A stretch of DNA of 64,000 bases from assembly GCA_964344725.1 (NCBI GenBank), contig CAYFOI010000003.1:1520-65519 (forward strand). The letters are read 5' to 3'. Shown here one piece after another: positions 8,192 through 54,174 of the stretch (position 1 is its first letter; the number at the start of each line of letters is the position of its first letter). Source of the DNA: an uncultured Candidatus Peribacteria bacterium. Lineage in GTDB: Bacteria; Patescibacteriota; Gracilibacteria; UBA1369; UBA12470. The notes under the pieces are model-generated. The model made no database searches. It had not been told where the DNA came from and saw only the letters and a list, made by a program, of their open reading frames with translations. The translations under genes were made by a program, and so were the position numbers.

Positions 8192-9013
8192 ATGGATTTT
8201 TCGGCTCTAGAAAAAAAAGCGGCACAACTTCGTATCGATGCTTTGACAGCGATTCACAAGGCTAATTCTGGTCATACAGGAGGTTCAATGTCTTGTATGG
8301 ATATTTTGGTGGCGCTTTATTATGGGGGTGTTCTTAAGTTTGATCCAAATATGCCACAGCTTCCTGAGCGAGATTATTTTGTTCTTTCGAAAGGTCATGC
8401 GGCTCCGGCGTTGTATGCTGTTTTGGCTGATCTTGGGTTTTTTGATAAGTCTGAGCTTGATCATTTGAGACAGGCGGGAGCGCTTCTCCAGGGACATCCA
8501 GTTGTGAAAATCCCAGGGGTGGAGGCGACTACTGGATCTTTGGGACAGGGGATTTCTGCTGCTGTTGGTCTCGCGCTTGCTATTAAGGCGGATCGTGAGG
8601 ATCGAGATGTTTTTGTTTTGTTGGGTGATGGTGAATTGCAGGAAGGTCAGGTTTGGGAGGCTGTGATGTCTGCGGCACATTATCGTTTGGATAATCTGGT
8701 GGCGATTGTTGATCGAAATAAGTTGCAAATTGATGGGCCGTGTAGTGGAGTGATGAATGTTGAACCAATTGCAGATAAATTCGAGTCTTTTGGATGGAAA
8801 GTTATTCCACTCGTTTCTGGGCATAATATTGAAGAGATTGTTTTGGCTTTAAATAAGGCGAAAAATATAGCTCGGCAGCCTACTGTAATTGTGGCTCCGA
8901 CGGTCAAAGGCAAGGGGGTGCCTTTTGCAGAGAACAAGGCTTCGTATCATGGAGTGCCTCTTTCTGAGGCGGAGATGGAGGAGGTTGTACCTTTGTTAGA
9001 GAGTAAACTGTAA
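8192..9013 (+). CDS. tkt: Transketolase, N-terminal (TPP-binding) subunit of a split enzyme
   Basis: Motifs ANSGHTGGSMSCMDILVALYY, LSKGHAAPALYA and GSLGQGISAAVG...LGDGELQEG; 273 aa, followed directly by the C-terminal subunit gene. Confidence 0.9.
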   Translation: MDFSALEKKAAQLRIDALTAIHKANSGHTGGSMSCMDILVALYYGGVLKFDPNMPQLPERDYFVLSKGHAAPALYAVLADLGFFDKSELDHLRQAGALLQGHPVVKIPGVEATTGSLGQGISAAVGLALAIKADREDRDVFVLLGDGELQEGQVWEAVMSAAHYRLDNLVAIVDRNKLQIDGPCSGVMNVEPIADKFESFGWKVIPLVSGHNIEEIVLALNKAKNIARQPTVIVAPTVKGKGVPFAENKASYHGVPLSEAEMEEVVPLLESKL

Positions 9014-17863: not shown

Positions 17864-17989
17864 ATGCACGTTTATATTGGTTCAGATCACGGTGGTTGCG
17901 GTTTGACGGAGATATCTCTCGCTGGGTTCTCGCTTCGCTGTGAAGTCGCTCGTGATATCTGTCAAACCTTTAATATTTTATTTAAATAA
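17864..17989 (+). pseudogene. Diverged fragment of the rpiB 5' end (41-codon decoy ORF)
   Basis: ATGCACGTTTATATTGGTTCAGATCACGGTGGTT aligns with the rpiB start ATGAGAGTCTATATTGGTTCAGATCACGGTGGTT; 25 nt are identical (17873-17897 vs 18010-18034). The encoded peptide is MHVYIGSDHGGCGLTEI...EVARDICQTF, compared with RpiB MRVYIGSDHGGYKLKEA...DIAREVCEKV. That corresponds to an RpiB N-terminus with an internal deletion. Confidence 0.7.
17900..17968. repeat. Hairpin element, family 2, copy 1 (variable stem, conserved loop ends)
   Basis: The arms GGTTTGAC(GG)AGATATC and GATATCTGTCAAACC form 15 bp with a 2-nt bulge. The 37-nt loop starts TCTCGCTGGG and ends AAGTCGCTCGT. The other copies are at 46315-46383 and 51939-52033. 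Confidence 0.7.
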
Positions 17990-18000
17990 TTGTTTTATTC

Positions 18001-18438
18001 ATGAGAGTCTATATTGGTTCAGATCACGGTGGTTATAAATTGAAAGAAGCTCTGAAGGAAATGCTTGAGGTCCAGGGTACCGAGTTTACGGATTTGGGAT
18101 GTTTTAATGAGGAGAGTTGTGACTATCCGGATATTGCTAGAGAGGTTTGTGAGAAAGTTGCTGCTGATCCTGCGTCGCGGGGTGTTTTGGTTTGTGGGAC
18201 TGGGCTTGGAATGTCGATGGCGGCTAACAAATATCCTGGGATTCGTGCTGCTATGTGTACGACTGAATATATGGCGCAAATGGCGCGGGAGCACAATGAT
18301 GCTCAGGTGATTTGCATGGGTGGTCGTGTAATTGATGTTGAGATTGGGAAGAAAATGCTTGCGATGTTTTTGAAAACAGATTTTTCAGGGGAGGAGAGAC
18401 ATAAGAGAAGGATAGATGGGGTGATGAATATAGTATGA
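18001..18438 (+). CDS. rpiB: Ribose-5-phosphate isomerase B
   Basis: Motifs IGSDHGGYKLKE, CGTGLGMSMAANK and NDAQVICMGGRV; 145 aa. Confidence 0.9.
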   Translation: MRVYIGSDHGGYKLKEALKEMLEVQGTEFTDLGCFNEESCDYPDIAREVCEKVAADPASRGVLVCGTGLGMSMAANKYPGIRAAMCTTEYMAQMAREHNDAQVICMGGRVIDVEIGKKMLAMFLKTDFSGEERHKRRIDGVMNIV

Positions 18439-18500
18439 TTTTTGGTCGATAGGCTCTTTCACTTACGTACAGTACGTTCTTTCGCCTATCGCCAAAAATC
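18437..18500. repeat. Short palindromic element with GATTTTTG...CAAAAATC termini, immediately after rpiB
   Basis: GATTTTTGG(T)CGATAGGC pairs with GCCTATCGCCAAAAATC (17 bp, 1 bulge) around a 29-nt loop. The element overlaps the rpiB TGA stop. Its termini are the same as the outer arms of the family-1 elements at 19405 and 22048. Confidence 0.65.
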
Positions 18501-18580
18501 TTAATGTTCTTTATTAGCTATTTCTCTATGTGAGAAATTCTATTACTATGGTTGCAGAATTAGTTCATTATCAAGTCACC

Positions 18581-19517: not shown

Positions 19518-19665
19518 TATCTATGGCAGTGTCTCGCATTATCTGGCGAGACGTTTCCAAGCTCGCTCTAAACATTCAAAAAATCTTTTGAAGCACTGCT
19601 GATGTTTTGTCGCAACTTTTTCTCTTTAATGGGTTATTGTATCTCAGTAAATAATATCAAACTTC

Positions 19666-33829: not shown

Positions 33830-33919
33830 CTTTTTAGTAGGTTAGTAGGTTAGTAGGTTAGCTTGTTGCTGATTTGTAACCTCGCTCGAGCTTGGCTTAA
33901 GCGAGGATGAAATCAATAA

Positions 33920-45576: not shown

Positions 45577-46239
45577 ATGGGATTCGGAGAAAATCCAAGG
45601 GCTGCTATGGCAGCGGCGTTGTTAGCACTTACTACATTGGCTGGAAGTTGTGATAAGCCAGCTGCTGATGTAGATGCTAGTGCTGTCCCGACAGCTAGAG
45701 GGGCTGAACTGGTTGAAGATTTGCGTGTTGAGGGACAGGAGTTGGTTGATGAGGCTAATGGGCCTGGTGAGGGCAGGATGTATGGGTTTGGTGGTGTTGC
45801 GGCGCATCAGGTTGGAGAGTTTTATGGAGCTTACGGAGATGCGGCTCAAGAACTGCAAGCAATGGGGGATTATGCTGGGTTGGCTGCGTTAGATACCGAA
45901 GTGCAAGCTGTTTATGCTCAGCTTGTTGATTATCCTGAGGGTCAGGAGAGTATGGTTAATCTTGATTTGGCTATGGCTGCTGGACAGGCTTTTCTTGATG
46001 AATTGGCGGGAATTGAGAAAAAGGATGTGACTTATGGAATTCCTCAACTTACTACTGCTGCTAAGCAGAAGTATATTGAATTTGAAGTTGCGTGTTTGCG
46101 TGCTGGCGAGTCAGTGGATCCTATTCGTGACGATATTTATTCTCGGGTTCCTGAGCACCTTAGAGGCGAGGTTGAATCGGGTAGATCAGCAGCTATGGAC
46201 GAAGCTCGAAAAGTATTGTTTGGGGGAGGAGCTGAATAG
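45577..46239 (+). CDS. Hypothetical secreted protein or possible lipoprotein (220 aa), inserted between pyrB and pyrC
   Basis: N-terminus AAMAAALLALTTLAGSCDKP, which is lipobox-like. The rest is an Ala/Glu-rich helical region. TGGTATAAT at 45538-45546 is an extended -10 candidate upstream. Confidence 0.5.
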   Translation: MGFGENPRAAMAAALLALTTLAGSCDKPAADVDASAVPTARGAELVEDLRVEGQELVDEANGPGEGRMYGFGGVAAHQVGEFYGAYGDAAQELQAMGDYAGLAALDTEVQAVYAQLVDYPEGQESMVNLDLAMAAGQAFLDELAGIEKKDVTYGIPQLTTAAKQKYIEFEVACLRAGESVDPIRDDIYSRVPEHLRGEVESGRSAAMDEARKVLFGGGAE

Positions 46240-46286: not shown

Positions 46287-46316
46287 ATGAAAAAGTTACT
46301 TCTCAGAAATGGTTAG
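46287..46316 (+). pseudogene. Diverged copy of the first 9 codons of pyrC (decoy mini-ORF MKKLLLRNG-stop)
   Basis: ATGAAAAAGTTACTTCTCAGAAATGGT aligns with pyrC ATGACAAAACTACTCCTAAGAAACGGT. There are 6 differences and 5 are synonymous. A TAG follows immediately. The copy is in frame with pyrC, 132 nt upstream. Confidence 0.65.
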
Positions 46317-46383
46317 AAATTCAGTAATCTCTCTTGCTCCCGTGCCTAGTCGGACAAGGTCGCTCGATAGATTCTGAATTTCT
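46315..46383. repeat. Hairpin element, family 2, copy 2
   Basis: The arms AGAAATTCAG(T)AATCT and AGATTCTGAATTTCT form 15 bp with 1 bulge. The 38-nt loop starts CTCTTGCTCCCG and ends AAGGTCGCTCGAT. Confidence 0.7.
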
Positions 46384-46418: not shown

Positions 46419-47717
46419 ATGACAAAACTACTCCTAAGAAACGGTACAGTTGTAAGCTCTCAGGGGAAACAGCGGGCTGATGTTCTTTGTGAAAACGGAA
46501 AAATCCTGAAGGTTGAGGAGGATATTACGGTTGTTGATGATATGGAAATTATTGATTGTGAGGGCCAGTTCATTATCCCTGGTGTGATCGATACGCATGT
46601 GCATTTGCGTGAGCCGGGTGGTGAGTATAAGGAAGATTTTATTACTGGGTCGAAAGCTGCGGCTCGAGGTGGAGTTACGACAGTTCTTGATATGCCGAAT
46701 AATAGTCCTGTTACAGATTCGGTTGAGACCCTTGAGGCTAAATATGAGATGGCGAAGGGGCGGATGCTTGTTAACTATGGGTTTTATATTGCGGCGACTG
46801 GTTCGAATATTGAGGAATTAAAAAAAGCTGATCGTGCGTGTGGAGTTAAGCTCTTTATGGGTAAGTCGACTGGAGATATTGTTGTAGAGGATGGTCTTGA
46901 TGAAATTTTTGAATTTTGCAAAGAAAGAACGCTTGTTGTTCATGCTGAGGATGAGGAGCGGATTGAGGCTCGAAAGAAGGAATTTGCAGATGTGGATGAT
47001 CCGTCTGTGCATTCTTTGATTCGCGATGAAGAAGCTGCGTATTTAGCGGTTAAGACGGCACTGCATTTGGCGAAAAAGTATGACACTAAGCTTCATATTG
47101 CTCATTTAAGTACTGCTCGTGAGGTTGAGTCTTTGCGGAAATTCCATGGAGATTACGTGACTGCTGAGGCTGCAACTCATCACCTATTTTTAACTACTGA
47201 TGCTTATTCTGAAAAGGGAACTCTTGTTCAAATGAACCCTCCGCTTCGAGAAGTTGGTGATAAGGATGCTCTTTGGGATGCTCTTCGTGAAGGTGTTATT
47301 GATACGGTTATTACAGATCATGCGCCTCATACTCTTGATGAAAAAGGGAAGCGCTATGGGGAGGCTCCTTCTGGTGTACCAGGGCTTGAGACGCTTTTGC
47401 CTCTGATGCTCGATTGTGTTAACCATGGAGATCTTACTTTTGAGAAAATGGTTGAGGTGCTATGCGAAAAGCCTGCCGAGATTTTTGAGCTAGATCGCAA
47501 GGGGCAGATTGCAGAGGGGTATGATGCGGATTTGACGGTTGTGGATATGAGTCGTGAGGAAGTTGTTGGCGAAAAAGGCTACCATTCAAAGTGTGGTTGG
47601 TCTCCTTATGATGGTTGGAAGCTTATTGGATGGCCAGTTGTGACGGTTGTGAATGGCGAGGTTGTGATGCGAGGTGGGGCGGTAGAGGAGAAATTTGTGG
47701 GGGGGGCGGTTTTTTAA
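46419..47717 (+). CDS. pyrC: Dihydroorotase
   Basis: Motifs GVIDTHVHLREPG, VHAED and TDHAPH; 432 aa. Confidence 0.92.
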   Translation: MTKLLLRNGTVVSSQGKQRADVLCENGKILKVEEDITVVDDMEIIDCEGQFIIPGVIDTHVHLREPGGEYKEDFITGSKAAARGGVTTVLDMPNNSPVTDSVETLEAKYEMAKGRMLVNYGFYIAATGSNIEELKKADRACGVKLFMGKSTGDIVVEDGLDEIFEFCKERTLVVHAEDEERIEARKKEFADVDDPSVHSLIRDEEAAYLAVKTALHLAKKYDTKLHIAHLSTAREVESLRKFHGDYVTAEAATHHLFLTTDAYSEKGTLVQMNPPLREVGDKDALWDALREGVIDTVITDHAPHTLDEKGKRYGEAPSGVPGLETLLPLMLDCVNHGDLTFEKMVEVLCEKPAEIFELDRKGQIAEGYDADLTVVDMSREEVVGEKGYHSKCGWSPYDGWKLIGWPVVTVVNGEVVMRGGAVEEKFVGGAVF

Positions 47718-48490
47718 TTCGTAGCTTCTGGTTCTGGAGTTGTTTCAACCAATATATCCTGTATGGCCTCCATAGCCGCCTGAAATCCTTTTTTCCATAT
47801 GCGTCTTTCTGTATGTGGGAATTTGCCTTGTCGTTTAGTTCTTTTTCTTATTGCATCTCTAGACATTCCTGGGTGCGTTGTACACTTGCTTCTAGCTTTT
47901 TTTCTTCTGCGACGAGTGTGTTTCATTTGCTGATATGCTGCGCCATGTATCCTATGAAGAAGTTCTTCTAGCCCATATATTGTTAGGTCCGCTCTTTTGA
48001 GAGACTCTAATGCTCTTGGGTCATGAAAGTTGTCTCCGGCTCTTTCTACATCTTCTAAAATATTGTCACGTTTTTTTCTTGCCGCGTTTAGTTTTTTTAC
48101 TATGTGCTCAGGATCTCTGGCGCCATCTCTAAATATTGCAATAAGCGCTGCTTGGTATTTTAATGTTTGTCTTTTTGTTTGAGGCAATTTTGTATCGTCT
48201 TGAGTTTCGGCTTGCAATGGCAGCAATGTATCATCGGAAGCTTCAACTGATTGAGGTATATCCAAGCCATCTAGCAATGCTTCTCTTGCCGCTAATCTTG
48301 TTCTTCTGATCTTAGTCCTTTGAGATCGTTTCCACTCACTACTTCTTGCGGTAGCTTCCCTTTGCAATCTATGAGCTCCTGGTTCTTCGAAATGTCTATG
48401 TGATAGCTCTAGTCGGTTAGTCCCTTGAGGAACTCTTCCGGTGTTTATGTTTGGTCTTTCGAAGTGTTCTATTCCTTGATTGTTTTGCAT
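47714..48490 (-). CDS. Hypothetical highly basic protein (258 aa), antisense-oriented inside the pyr cluster
   Basis: This is the only long ORF in the 887-nt gap between pyrC and pyrD. It is Arg/Lys/Glu/Gln-rich (RRRRKKARSK; KRTKRQGK) with no hydrophobic segments. Its stop overlaps the pyrC stop within TTTTAATT. Confidence 0.5.
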   Translation of the reverse strand: MQNNQGIEHFERPNINTGRVPQGTNRLELSHRHFEEPGAHRLQREATARSSEWKRSQRTKIRRTRLAAREALLDGLDIPQSVEASDDTLLPLQAETQDDTKLPQTKRQTLKYQAALIAIFRDGARDPEHIVKKLNAARKKRDNILEDVERAGDNFHDPRALESLKRADLTIYGLEELLHRIHGAAYQQMKHTRRRRKKARSKCTTHPGMSRDAIRKRTKRQGKFPHTERRIWKKGFQAAMEAIQDILVETTPEPEATN

Positions 48491-50499: not shown

Positions 50500-51240
50500 A
50501 TGAATCAGCAGCGTAAAGGTTTAGTGCCAGAAGGGCTTAGCAGGCTTGCTAGTAGGGCTTCTACTGGTTTAATGCTGGTTGCTTCTATCGTTTTGATTGG
50601 GGCTTGTGGTGGTAATCGTTATCTTGATGCATATGATGATGATGATAACGTGGGCCGTGTTTCTGCCGGTTGTGGTGATCAGGTTAGACGTCTTCATCAT
50701 TCTACGGAAGATGGTGACCGTCTTACTGATGTTGGTCGTACTATTGAAGAAGGTCTTGAGAGATATCCTGCTGATTTTTATTTGATAGATTTGAGTGGTT
50801 CTATGGGACAGGATGTTGAAGTAATCAGAGCTCATGATTTTCCTGAAGGTGCTGAGGTTTGGGCCTTTAATGCAGGAATGCTTTTCAAGCTTTTTGAACC
50901 GTCTATATCGTATTCTTCGGGAGATACTCCATTGTGGCAATGTTTAGATCGTCTTATCGATCATTATTTGCAAGATCCTGATGGCAAGGAGCTTACTGTG
51001 ATGACTGATGGTGTTGATAATGATTTTAATAATGCTAGTGCTACTCAGACTATGGTTGATGGTATAATTAAGGATGCTAAAGGCAAGAATTTGGTTATTA
51101 ATATGGTTGCTGCTGGTGATTATACCTATGCTCCACAGGGAGTTGTTGATACTATGATGAAGATTCCTAATGAGACTGGTGGTGGACATTTTATTAGAGG
51201 TTTTGAGGAGGATGATAAAGATAAAAGGGAGAGTATATAG
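50500..51240 (+). CDS. von Willebrand factor A-like lipoprotein (246 aa), inserted between pyrK and pyrE
   Basis: Signal peptide plus lipobox (LVASIVLIGAC) and a MIDAS-type motif (YLIDLSGSMG). The later TDG motif (LTVMTDGVDN) is typical of vWA domains. Confidence 0.6.
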   Translation: MNQQRKGLVPEGLSRLASRASTGLMLVASIVLIGACGGNRYLDAYDDDDNVGRVSAGCGDQVRRLHHSTEDGDRLTDVGRTIEEGLERYPADFYLIDLSGSMGQDVEVIRAHDFPEGAEVWAFNAGMLFKLFEPSISYSSGDTPLWQCLDRLIDHYLQDPDGKELTVMTDGVDNDFNNASATQTMVDGIIKDAKGKNLVINMVAAGDYTYAPQGVVDTMMKIPNETGGGHFIRGFEEDDKDKRESI

Positions 51241-51303: not shown

Positions 51304-51951
51304 ATGGAAAATGTATCAAAGGAAGTTGCTGGTGCTTTGCTTGGTATTGGCGCTGTGAAAGTTAGTATGGATCCGCCGTTTCAGTGGGTTTCTGGAATAA
51401 AATCTCCTGTTTATTGTGATAATCGCATGATGATTTCGCATGTTGCTGAGAGACAAATCGTTGTTGATGCTTTTAAGAAAATGGTTGCAGATCTTGATTA
51501 TGATCCTGATTACATTGGTGGAACTGCTACTGCAGCTATACCTTGGGCTGGATTTTTGGCTCAGGAACTAGGCAAGCCAATGATTTATATTCGTCCTAAA
51601 AAGAAGGAGCATGGTGCTGGTAAGCAGATTGAAGGTGATCTTGAAGCTGGCAAAAAGGTTCTTATAATTGAAGATCTTATTTCTACTGGCGGAAGTAGTG
51701 TTCGTGCTGCGCAGGCTGTTCGTGAAGAAGGCCAGTGTGAAGTGAGCGACATTTTCGCAATTGTTACTTGGGAAATGGGTAAATCTAAAACTGCTTTCGA
51801 AGAGGCTGGTATCAATTTAACAACACTTACTGGTTTTACTGACCTAATTGGCCTTGCTGAGGAGAGATCTGATATTACTTCTGAACAAGCTGGGATGATT
51901 CATAAGTTCAAGGAAGATCCTGCTGGATGGTGGGATGTAGTATCGTCTTAA
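51304..51951 (+). CDS. pyrE: Orotate phosphoribosyltransferase
   Basis: PRPP-binding motif VLIIEDLISTGGS, plus FQWVSGIKSPVYCDNR. I trimmed the track ORF (51253) to the ATG at 51304 (MENVSKEVAG...), which matches the usual OPRTase N-terminus. Confidence 0.88.
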   Translation: MENVSKEVAGALLGIGAVKVSMDPPFQWVSGIKSPVYCDNRMMISHVAERQIVVDAFKKMVADLDYDPDYIGGTATAAIPWAGFLAQELGKPMIYIRPKKKEHGAGKQIEGDLEAGKKVLIIEDLISTGGSSVRAAQAVREEGQCEVSDIFAIVTWEMGKSKTAFEEAGINLTTLTGFTDLIGLAEERSDITSEQAGMIHKFKEDPAGWWDVVSS

Positions 51952-52033
51952 TGATTCTCGCTCCCGAGAAAGGCCTAATCCCGCTTTGCGGGATTGGTGT
52001 TTCTAAGATCGCTCTAATCATTAAGACGATACT
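51939..52033. repeat. Hairpin element, family 2, copy 3 (stem built from the pyrE 3' end)
   Basis: A perfect 18-bp stem: AGTATCGTCTTAATGATT, which includes the pyrE TAA stop, pairs with AATCATTAAGACGATACT. The 59-nt loop starts CTCGCTCCCG and ends AAGATCGCTCT. The loop contains its own hairpin AATCCCGC-TTT-GCGGGATT (51977-51995). Confidence 0.75.
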
Positions 52034-53157: not shown

Positions 53158-54174
53158 ATGTCCCGAGAATCTGGTTTTACGGTTGTTCCGGAGGGTGCGG
53201 AGCGTGTAAAAGTTTTTATTATTACGGGGACGGAATGTTGTGATGAAGGCTTGTGTTTGTATCGAGAACTATATACAAGGTTATTCCAGAGTGCTGGTAT
53301 TTCTCCTGAGAATATTGTTATTTGTAGTACTTGTTTCAATTGGCTAGATATTATGAAGTCTGAGTGGGAAGGAGAGGATTCTCCGAAAATTGTGTTGGTT
53401 GAATACGGTTCTAGTCGTGGTATGTTTATTAATTTTAATGATTTTTGTTGTTTGCCAGAGGGTAGGGTTGCGACTATTTCTTTTGAAGAGGCTGTCAAAG
53501 TTGGTTCAAGTTTTACTTCTCATGAAAAAATGTTTGTGGTGGCAGGTAAACCTTTTAAGATTGCGGGCTTTGTTGCTTTGATTGGGTCTTGTATTAAGTT
53601 TGTTGTTGATGGCAGAGGTATTGCGGATGACGAATTGTCTTCTATCGAGGGTAATTATGGTGTTGATGAAGTTGAGCCGGGGTCTATGCTTGATCTTAAG
53701 CGTGGTAGGCATTTAGTTGTGCCTAGTGAGTTACCGGCGCGAGTTATGACGAGTAGTGACTTTTTTAAATCTACAAATAGGCATCTTGGTGATGGTCTCG
53801 TTTCTGTTGAATTGGATGAAGAACAGGATTCTCGTGTTTGGCGAGAAATTTTATATGGGTATTTAACTTCGAGTATTTTCCGAGAATATTTGCAAAGCGC
53901 TCCTCATTTATTTGCTCGCGACTTTTTGAGCACGACTAATTTGGTTTTTTGGAGAATGATTTTTGCGGAAGATCCTGGTTTATATGCTGATTACGAAGAT
54001 TTGTTTTTTGAAATTGAAGAGCTTTATAATTGGGCTACGCGTGGGGGCGAGGGAGATGAAAGGTGGTCGCGTTTTTGTGCTGCTATGAGAGATTTGTTTT
54101 TTGATCCTTCTTGTAAGGGTGTGTTTCGAGGATTTTTGAGTACTCTCGAAGCTTCATTTAGGGATTCTGCGTGA
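53158..54174 (+). CDS. Hypothetical cytoplasmic protein (338 aa, Cys- and Phe-rich orphan)
   Basis: A long ORF with its own promoter. It has no TM segment or signal peptide, and no motif I recognise. Confidence 0.5.
   Translation: MSRESGFTVVPEGAERVKVFIITGTECCDEGLCLYRELYTRLFQSAGISPENIVICSTCFNWLDIMKSEWEGEDSPKIVLVEYGSSRGMFINFNDFCCLPEGRVATISFEEAVKVGSSFTSHEKMFVVAGKPFKIAGFVALIGSCIKFVVDGRGIADDELSSIEGNYGVDEVEPGSMLDLKRGRHLVVPSELPARVMTSSDFFKSTNRHLGDGLVSVELDEEQDSRVWREILYGYLTSSIFREYLQSAPHLFARDFLSTTNLVFWRMIFAEDPGLYADYEDLFFEIEELYNWATRGGEGDERWSRFCAAMRDLFFDPSCKGVFRGFLSTLEASFRDSA

Follow-up and report, generated by a model that had tools for sequence, protein, structure and literature searches.

Among the systems described so far, the closest to the hairpins considered here are the repetitive extragenic palindromes (REP) and related elements (BIME, REPIN) of the GTAG and CGTC superfamilies, which are imperfect palindromes of 20-40 nt occurring in many copies in several phyla (Di Nocera et al., 2013; PMC3733652). 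Most of them are found close behind genes or in the gaps between convergent genes; some copies lie in open reading frames (ORFs), and some families within larger palindromes (PMC3733652). In a window of 64,000 nt (the whole stretch of DNA analysed here, from contig CAYFOI010000003.1 of an uncultured Candidatus Peribacteria bacterium), three hairpins located next to rpiB, pyrC and pyrE, hereafter c1, c2 and c3, share the inside of the hairpin but not its stem, and we report them here as members, c1 being a divergent one, of what we call the GAGCGA-core family. Like REPs, this family is made of 35-39-nt imperfect palindromes present in several copies, at least 23 in a member of the Nevskiaceae and three or four in the 64-kb window. 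Unlike REPs, which the same survey defines by an unpaired GTAG or CGTC tetranucleotide at one end, its members carry neither tag on either strand, end in (C)GAGCGA... and ...GAGCGA(G), and are surrounded by a palindrome that differs at each locus and fits no consensus. The motif is absent from that REP survey (PMC3733652), and literature searches, by description and by motif, returned no account of a hairpin family with a GAGCGA core.

Other small repeats resemble the family in part. The Rickettsia palindromic elements (RPE) are also inserted in frame in functional genes (as seen here in tgt and queA of loci L159, L216, L218 and L219), are long-lived and add a short peptide, but they measure 100-150 bp and are conserved throughout, whereas only about 35 nt are conserved here, the stem is local and the host range differs; the two are set apart by descriptions. 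Miniature transposable elements with inverted repeats (MITEs) such as Correia/NEMIS, RUP and Nezha are similarly small, non-coding, hairpin-forming and interspersed, and sometimes alter gene ends; on the contrary, they keep their terminal inverted repeats (TIRs), which are transposase sites, and vary inside, while the GAGCGA-core family does the reverse and shows no constant target duplication. Quasi-palindrome template switching and fold-back priming, as in yeast inverted duplications (PMC10622511), likewise produce an inverted copy of a flank, perfect stems and apparent compensation without selection; this is a mutational process and not an element, and it leaves the spread of a core over loci and phyla unexplained. 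Intrinsic terminators, in which a U-tract comes after a short G+C-rich stem, differ as well, as the stems here have 15-26 bp around an interior of 35-60 nt, and no T-run follows c3 or the Nevskiaceae copies, c1 and c2 being followed merely by generally AT-rich sequence. In integron attC sites, the folded strand has at its foot R''/R' core sites of consensus RYYYAAC...GTTRRRY, and these are absent from all copies read.

We give an even chance to the reading that c1-c3 are copies of a small REP/RPE-like mobile DNA hairpin module, acting as folded DNA and not as a dedicated RNA gene. The core would act as single-stranded folded or cruciform DNA and would insert at or near the centres of short natural palindromes, with gene ends, first codons and tolerant protein loops as typical landing sites. 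The stem would then grow, and stay perfect, as one flank is copied to the other side, through fold-back or intramolecular template switching; with such flank copying the outer stem would differ at each locus and could hold a gene's own stop codon, as that of pyrE. The family itself is real. It extends across phyla, with arms proper to each locus; in-frame insertions of it occur in either orientation, and the surplus of filled over empty alleles amounts to the core and about one arm. We infer a moving enzyme or process, a template-switch step and the same origin for the arms in the window.

The conserved part, read on the minus strand, is P1-(C)GAGCGA-YC-UU-[P2 hairpin]-C-GG-GAGCRA-(G)-P1', P1 being the outer stem and P2 a variable apical hairpin. 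The same hexamer, GAGCGA, is thus found on both strands of the internal loop, as a direct repeat inside a hairpin, and the facing hexamers pair antiparallel as G.A, A.G, G-C, C-G, G.A and A.G before two C-G (or U.G) pairs, a small pyrimidine loop and P2. On the plus (gene-sense) strand, C.U and U.C mismatches stand at the G.A/A.G positions. About 35 nt are conserved and the whole core of the module measures about 35-60 nt, a 38-mer form of it being CCGAGCGACC...GGGAGCGAGG. The pairing register is confirmed by L219, in which the outer G.A pairs become G-C through changes on both strands (P0245 and P0246 likewise, by protein sequence). Other double changes affect P2 in Nevskiaceae copies (L171, L173), where GGGC/GCCC becomes GGCC/GGCC and GCGC/GCGC, and pair 16-59, which goes from C-G to U-A in L218. 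A reading of the internal loop as a K-turn was rejected, the loop having 4 nt versus 3 nt instead of 0 versus 3. Two Symbiobacteriaceae copies (L054 6497-6570 and L024 3460-3534) have in common the core and a P2 stem, CAGGTC/GACCTG, and carry unrelated P2 loops of about 27 nt, so that the apex of the hairpin is itself variable or prone to insertion, as in c3 with its nested hairpin.

Public collections were scanned with the pattern GAGCGAYCTT-N-CGGGAGCRAG and the matches filtered by complementarity of their flanks. Species-representative genomes gave at least 119 loci; among the matches listed, most are chance occurrences in GC-rich DNA with at most 5 complementary flank bases, and long inverted repeats enclose the motif in a few cases, in one metagenome-assembled genome (MAG) each of Gammaproteobacteria (two loci), Bacillota and Symbiobacteriaceae (two loci) and in one unclassified MAG. 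The two loci of the gammaproteobacterial MAG (L049, L119) have unrelated arms of 19 and 20 bp around an identical 35-nt core, and arms are also borne by L069/L187, L088 (Bacillota), L054/L024 (Symbiobacteriaceae), L205 and L157. A scan of metagenomes gave 76 loci, about 28 of them with arms, which measure 9-22 bp in a simple count and reach at most 26 bp after extension; nearly all lie on large contigs of one organism of about 70% G+C, from the metagenomes Ga0302046 and Ga0256864, which its Tgt places in the Nevskiaceae. The copies sampled on these contigs share an almost invariant 35-mer, GAGCGACCTTTGGGCGCAAGCCCATCGGGAGCGAG, and their arms, of 10-26 bp in most copies, are all different; cores are identical at 35/35 positions between copies whose arms have nothing in common. 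Gene contexts outside the window (a Fur-like gene, a lipoprotein, tgt, queA) are not conserved across genomes. Classic GTAG-tagged REP dimers (GTAGGAGCGCCTTCAGGCGCG...) and two families whose long TIRs are conserved are present on the Nevskiaceae contigs too (L180 4922-4977, L188 9410-9471; L178 2350-2431, L206 4466-4540; L159 5532-5595, L190 776-861), so that ordinary REP and MITE families occur there side by side with the GAGCGA-core family. The ends of two metagenome contigs fall exactly within hairpins of the latter, L211 at position 1 in an orthologue of c1 and L218 at position 1 in a queA copy, and the elements thus seem to break short-read assemblies.

Two in-frame copies of L159 are located within genes. 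That in tgt reads CTCGCT... on the coding strand and yields the peptide …KARHSGA-SLAPDGLAPKGRS-AGAAVPG…, and that in queA reads GAGCGA... and yields …GPG-RATFGRKPIGSE-DGV…; as the two genes are adjacent and co-directional, the core lies in opposite orientations in one operon and transcript, which argues against a strand-specific RNA and for an element acting at the DNA level. Arms located within coding sequence, moreover, cannot be old terminators. The orientation of intergenic Nevskiaceae copies relative to the neighbouring genes is mixed. A link of orientation with replication direction was rejected, since no correlation with local GC skew was found and both orientations occur within 1-10 kb.

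The DNA of tgt was compared between empty (L215, L217) and filled alleles (L159, L216, L218, L219), the Tgt orthologues having 83-89% identity. Compared with its nearest empty relative, a filled allele has 48-54 nt more, which amounts to the core plus about one arm and not two. The upstream arm of L159 and L218 (CCAGGCACAGCGGCGCC; CCCGGCACGGCGGCGCC in L218) aligns at 15-17 of 17 nt with the empty allele, where it makes up native codons for ARH-GGA, and the downstream arm holds the inverted complement (…GTGCCTGG), missing from the empty allele. In L216 it is the downstream arm (GCCGGCACCGGCAAGCC) that is native, with 16/17 nt identical to L217, and the upstream arm that is a new, imperfect inverted copy. 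The site forms a natural GC-rich quasi-palindrome in empty alleles, and three core subfamilies (L159, L218 and L219 types) occupy it in different lineages. Judging from these alignments, palindrome targeting and extension of an arm from the flank are probably both partly true at tgt; we infer the arm-building step from this one well-sampled gene. The same Tgt loop (columns ~200-245 of alignment A1, with Nevskia, Solimonas and Hydrocarboniphaga) holds unrelated insertions of 15-35 residues rich in Gly, Pro, Ala and Gln in many Nevskiales, for example ...GPQPQAFGGQGLPQAVPE...; GC-rich palindromes thus seem to have a hotspot of insertion in this tRNA-modification enzyme.

A covariance model (R1) was built from 18 diverse members, c2 and c3 being in the training set and c1 left out. 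In the window, R1 found c2 (46325-46373, minus strand, 46.3 bits) and c3 (51949-52022, minus strand, 40.7 bits), on both of which it had been trained, then c1 at 17910-17959 (14.3 bits, E 0.18), and nothing beyond these three. Over loci of related Peregrinibacteria it gave only one chance match, devoid of arms, and over the remaining loci 31 matches, including an inverted pair of two subfamilies in L157, each with its own arms. Motif matches lacking arms have at most 5-8 complementary flank bases. As a negative control, viral contigs contained 8 motif matches, none of which (0/8) has arms, and a phage origin was rejected on this ground. A scan of the window against Rfam reached the gathering score only for a tRNA, permissive scans yielding only generic hairpin matches. 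The similarity of c2 and c3 is above chance because both motifs recur in unrelated genomes, placed alike inside long inverted repeats.

The features of the window are listed in Table 1. The original prediction had described three hairpins sharing their loop ends, and its coordinates and sequences were exact, all three folding as hairpins. The shared loop ends hold for c2 and c3, which follow CTYGCTCCCG and AAGRTCGCTC at 9/10 positions each and in the same place relative to the stem; c1, with CTCGCTGGGT and AAG-TCGCTC, fits these motifs weakly. The core of c1 reads CGAGCGA...AGCGAGA on the minus strand and has in its middle GCGAAGC, a type of mini-hairpin that is stable. That the stems have no sequence in common was also correct, as the best ungapped match between the arms of c1, c2 and c3 covers 7-8 of 17-18 positions, and no further copy of any of these arms exists elsewhere in the window. 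The make-up of the c3 stem, with the end of pyrE in its 5' arm, stood unchanged, the arms being complementary at 18/18 positions, and so did the location of c1 and c2 behind the rpiB and pyrC decoys, the real starts lying at 18001 and 46419. On the contrary, the suggested link through CTCGCT/TCGCTC to family 1 of the window and to the ntpE-leader hairpin was not supported: with 17 occurrences for 26.9 expected, the bare hexamer TCGCTC is under-represented, and at 33880 the motif makes up a plain stem, which R1 does not pick up. Inverted repeats also flank other occurrences, as locus-specific arms in several lineages, most motif matches being without arms. Folding energies of c3 are -49.9 kcal/mol (z -6.9) on the plus strand and -50.0 kcal/mol (z -9.2) on the minus strand, and z ranges from -3.0 to -5.7 for c1 and c2. 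The variable part P2 of c3 is an insertion relative to the family consensus in the covariance model alignment. The partial copy c4 agrees with the 3' end of c3 in 21 of 24 positions, 7 nt of the arm (AAWCATT) among them, for a chance expectation of 0.

Table 1. Positions of the GAGCGA-core hairpins, their parts and the adjoining genes in the window.
Feature	Positions	Strand	Description
c3, whole hairpin	51939..52033	-	59-nt core inside a perfect 18-bp outer stem P1
c3, 5' arm	51939..51956	+	final 13 nt of pyrE (TAA at 51949-51951) and 5 nt
c3, 5' loop-end motif	51957..51966	+	CTCGCTCCCG; on the minus strand CGGGAGCGAG
c3, variable inner part P2	51967..52004	.	AGAAA/TTTCT stem around a nested hairpin AATCCCGC-TTT-GCGGGATT, predicted by folding
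c3, 3' loop-end motif	52005..52014	+	AAGATCGCTC; on the minus strand GAGCGATCTT
c3, 3' arm	52016..52033	+	perfect inverted match to the 5' arm; first 7 nt (AATCATT) common to c4
c2, whole hairpin	46315..46383	-	imperfect arms of 17-18 nt; core CTTGCTCCCG...AAGGTCGCTC; between the pyrC decoy and the real start
c1, divergent member	17900..17968	-	arms GGTTTGACGGAGATATC / GATATCTGTCAAACC; between the rpiB decoy and the real start
c4, partial copy	19553..19576	+	GTTTCCAAGCTCGCTCTAAACATT; adjoins family-1 copy A; no matching 5' arm
pyrE (orotate phosphoribosyltransferase)	51304..51951	+	stop codon inside the c3 arm
pyrF, start	52126
rpiB decoy start	17864..17897	+	ATGCACGTT...; corresponds to the leader and real start of rpiB in the relative L212
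pyrC decoy mini-ORF	46289..46318	+	encodes MKKLLLRNG; stop codon at the foot of the c2 stem

The window comes from the metagenome PRJEB17505, a look-up of sequencing runs for it returned none, and its proteins mark the source organism as a bacterium of the Candidate Phyla Radiation of Peregrinibacteria type. The nearest relatives of the window loci have 81-86% protein identity, and they inform mainly on c1. This copy is absent from L212 (77% RpiB identity), whose real start, ATGCACGTT…, with its leader, corresponds to the decoy of the window, and it is present in L211 (81% RpiB identity), the contig of which begins with …TTTTTCGCTCT-TGATACTCGGCAAACC, that is, the 3' motif and an arm identical to that of the window at 12/15 positions. 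Thus, c1 is an old insertion kept vertically, and the decoy is the original start. Both c1 and c2 occupy the first codons of their genes, which use new starts that bypass them; an interpretation of their 5' arms as diverged decoy coding sequence was rejected, identities of about 33-43% being those of AT-rich background. Neither c2 nor c3 was found in the relatives compared. Excision of c3 in silico leaves …TGGTGGGATGT|TGATTAGAG, where GATGT stands as a direct repeat of 5 nt at the junctions, together with GATTAGAG, as downstream of pyrE in L001. By analogy with tgt, it is plausible that the arm made of the pyrE end is native and the 3' arm its copy.

Several other features of the window were noted. 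At the stop codon of rpiB, a hairpin at 18441-18508 (TGA in its 5' arm) has the architecture of c1-c3 with another core; its outer stem is GATTTTTGG-TCGATAGGC / GCCTATCG-CCAAAAATC, and on the minus strand GAAAGA occurs twice, the two facing each other across a small inner hairpin. The same site has a different long hairpin in L212 and none in L211, owing to an overlap of rpiB and rpe. A small hairpin at 19533-19556, GTGTCTCGC-loop-GCGAGACGTTT, adjoins c4, and L001, a relative with 85% identity, has an almost identical hairpin, GTGTCTCGCCTGTTGGCGAAACGTTT, downstream of pyrE (8666-8690); they may represent another short repeat family or an ancestral form of the c3/c4 subfamily. Four ORFs among the pyr genes (45577-46239, 50500-51240, 47714-48490 on the minus strand, and 53158-54174) have no Pfam or NCBIfam match, and relatives have other genes, or none, at their positions. 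The strand asymmetry of the window is very strong, with a GC skew of +0.18 and an AT skew of -0.22 across the 64 kb.

A number of observations weigh against a mobile DNA module that builds its arms from the flank. In queA the filled alleles are longer by 66-84 nt, which exceeds the core plus one arm, so that arm growth was repeated there or both arms can be new. The tgt site is GC-rich and of low complexity, making alignments ambiguous, and its repeated occupancy may come from the tolerance of a protein loop and not from targeting. For the sites of c1-c3, the searched collections contain no sufficiently close empty allele, and the inner 7 bp of the c3 stem may belong to the element, since c4 shares them. 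Direct repeats are inconsistent, with 5 nt (GATGT) at c3, 25-35 nt at c1 and c2 and possibly about 11 nt at L218, and no target duplication is evident at most Nevskiaceae copies. Tagged REPs are associated with a RAYT (Y1 transposase) gene which the repeats flank; no transposase Pfam domain was found in the 6 ORFs that bracket c2 and c3, from pyrB to downstream of pyrF. Finally, compensatory changes are equally compatible with an RNA.

The original prediction had left two interpretations side by side, an element which targets, or creates by inverted duplication, a hairpin at its insertion site, and an RNA with a closing helix under structural constraint alone. The former is better supported: the Nevskiaceae relatives uphold it in outline through their locus-specific arms and tgt alleles, and between targeting and creating the answer is probably both in part, as the tgt site was already a quasi-palindrome. 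The RNA interpretation is weakened by the opposite orientations, the lack of a conserved context and the lack of an Rfam match, and we regard it as unlikely. In this scenario, a transcribed hairpin whose internal loop is a binding or processing site (e.g., for RNase III or some other widespread protein that binds RNA) would stabilise or terminate the upstream mRNA, in the window those of prs-rpiB, pyrC and pyrE-pyrF, and its closing helix need only pair. Such a role would agree with covarying stems around conserved loops, with hairpins that are very stable as RNA, with sites after stop codons or between convergent genes as is typical for REP-like RNA elements (PMC3733652), and with the three window copies, which are all oriented alike relative to genes and adjoin nucleotide-metabolism genes. 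However, DNA palindromes yield compensatory changes automatically, orientation is mixed in Nevskiaceae and opposite in the co-directional queA and tgt, and the pairing-capable purine (G.A) strand is antisense to genes in the window, where a sense RNA would have the C.U and U.C mismatches; in addition, no U-tract follows the stems. A more specific variant, a riboswitch or attenuator responding to phosphoribosyl pyrophosphate (PRPP) or pyrimidines, was considered for copies near prs/rpiB, pyrC and pyrE/pyrF, and rejected as contexts elsewhere are unrelated and orientation varies.

An ordinary MITE or REP mobilised by a transposase in trans, the whole hairpin being inserted and its arms evolving fast under pairing constraint, appears quite unlikely. 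It would readily account for the GATGT repeat flanking c3, the removal of which gives a plausible end of pyrE ahead of GATTAGAG, as found in L001, for the 7 nt of the c3 arm shared by c4, for both queA arms appearing mostly new, and for the presence of REP dimers and TIR families on the same Nevskiaceae contigs. On the contrary, divergence could not erase the arms yet spare cores identical at 35/35 positions, one of the two tgt arms aligns with native codons and the length gained falls short of two arms, and neither a GTAG or CGTC tag nor a constant target duplication exists. It is more doubtful still that no machinery is involved at all, the AGCGA/GNA-rich core forming an unusually stable DNA hairpin that stalls replication and both spreads and grows by microhomology-mediated template switching, with a convergent, physicochemical recurrence. 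GCGAAGC-type mini-hairpins at the centre of c1 and L069, hairpins nested in hairpins in c3, L149 and L054, and direct repeats of varying length are in line with such a process, and tracts of the GGGAGCG type form unusual stable DNA folds according to one report (PMC4275592), a lead on why the core might be special as DNA and not evidence for it. However, two identical 10-nt motifs across phyla of 42% and 70% G+C are hard to obtain by convergence, the AT-rich arms of the window provide no GC microhomology, and nearest-neighbour models, which ignore G.A pairs, predict no special stability of the core alone. A mere chance resemblance of unrelated window hairpins is scarcely credible: the window has three copies only, one of them weak (E 0.18), and the bare hexamer is not enriched, but c2 and c3 agree at 18/20 fixed positions, which effectively refutes chance for these two, and the same architecture was found independently in other genomes and is absent from chance controls.

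With these alternatives weighed, a mobile hairpin module acting as folded DNA remains the reading that we favour, and the GAGCGA-core family has a wider range and more unusual features than the window by itself would indicate. A further-reaching view, to which we attach little confidence, is that a core conserved across phyla, with its two facing GAGCGA strands, represents a new class of selfish DNA without terminal repeats of its own, which would enter palindrome centres as a folded single strand, make a locus-specific stem by fold-back copying of the host flank and so rewrite gene ends and starts (the pyrE tail, the rpiB and pyrC decoys) and protein loops (Tgt, QueA), possibly driven by a structure-specific enzyme common to the Candidate Phyla Radiation (CPR), Proteobacteria and Firmicutes. 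Small palindromic repeats such as REPs, RPEs and MITEs usually have conserved ends or stems and are lineage-specific, whereas here the inside of the hairpin is conserved, the stem is local, and one 10+10-nt signature is found in ultra-small CPR bacteria (42% G+C), in Gammaproteobacteria of 70% G+C and in Firmicutes. For annotators, this signature is a marker of decoy starts, odd gene tails and assembly breaks such as the contig ends of L211 and L218. If the arm-building step is true, it would provide a simple and testable route by which a tiny element makes long perfect palindromes, and through which stop and start codons could move and peptides could join conserved enzymes.

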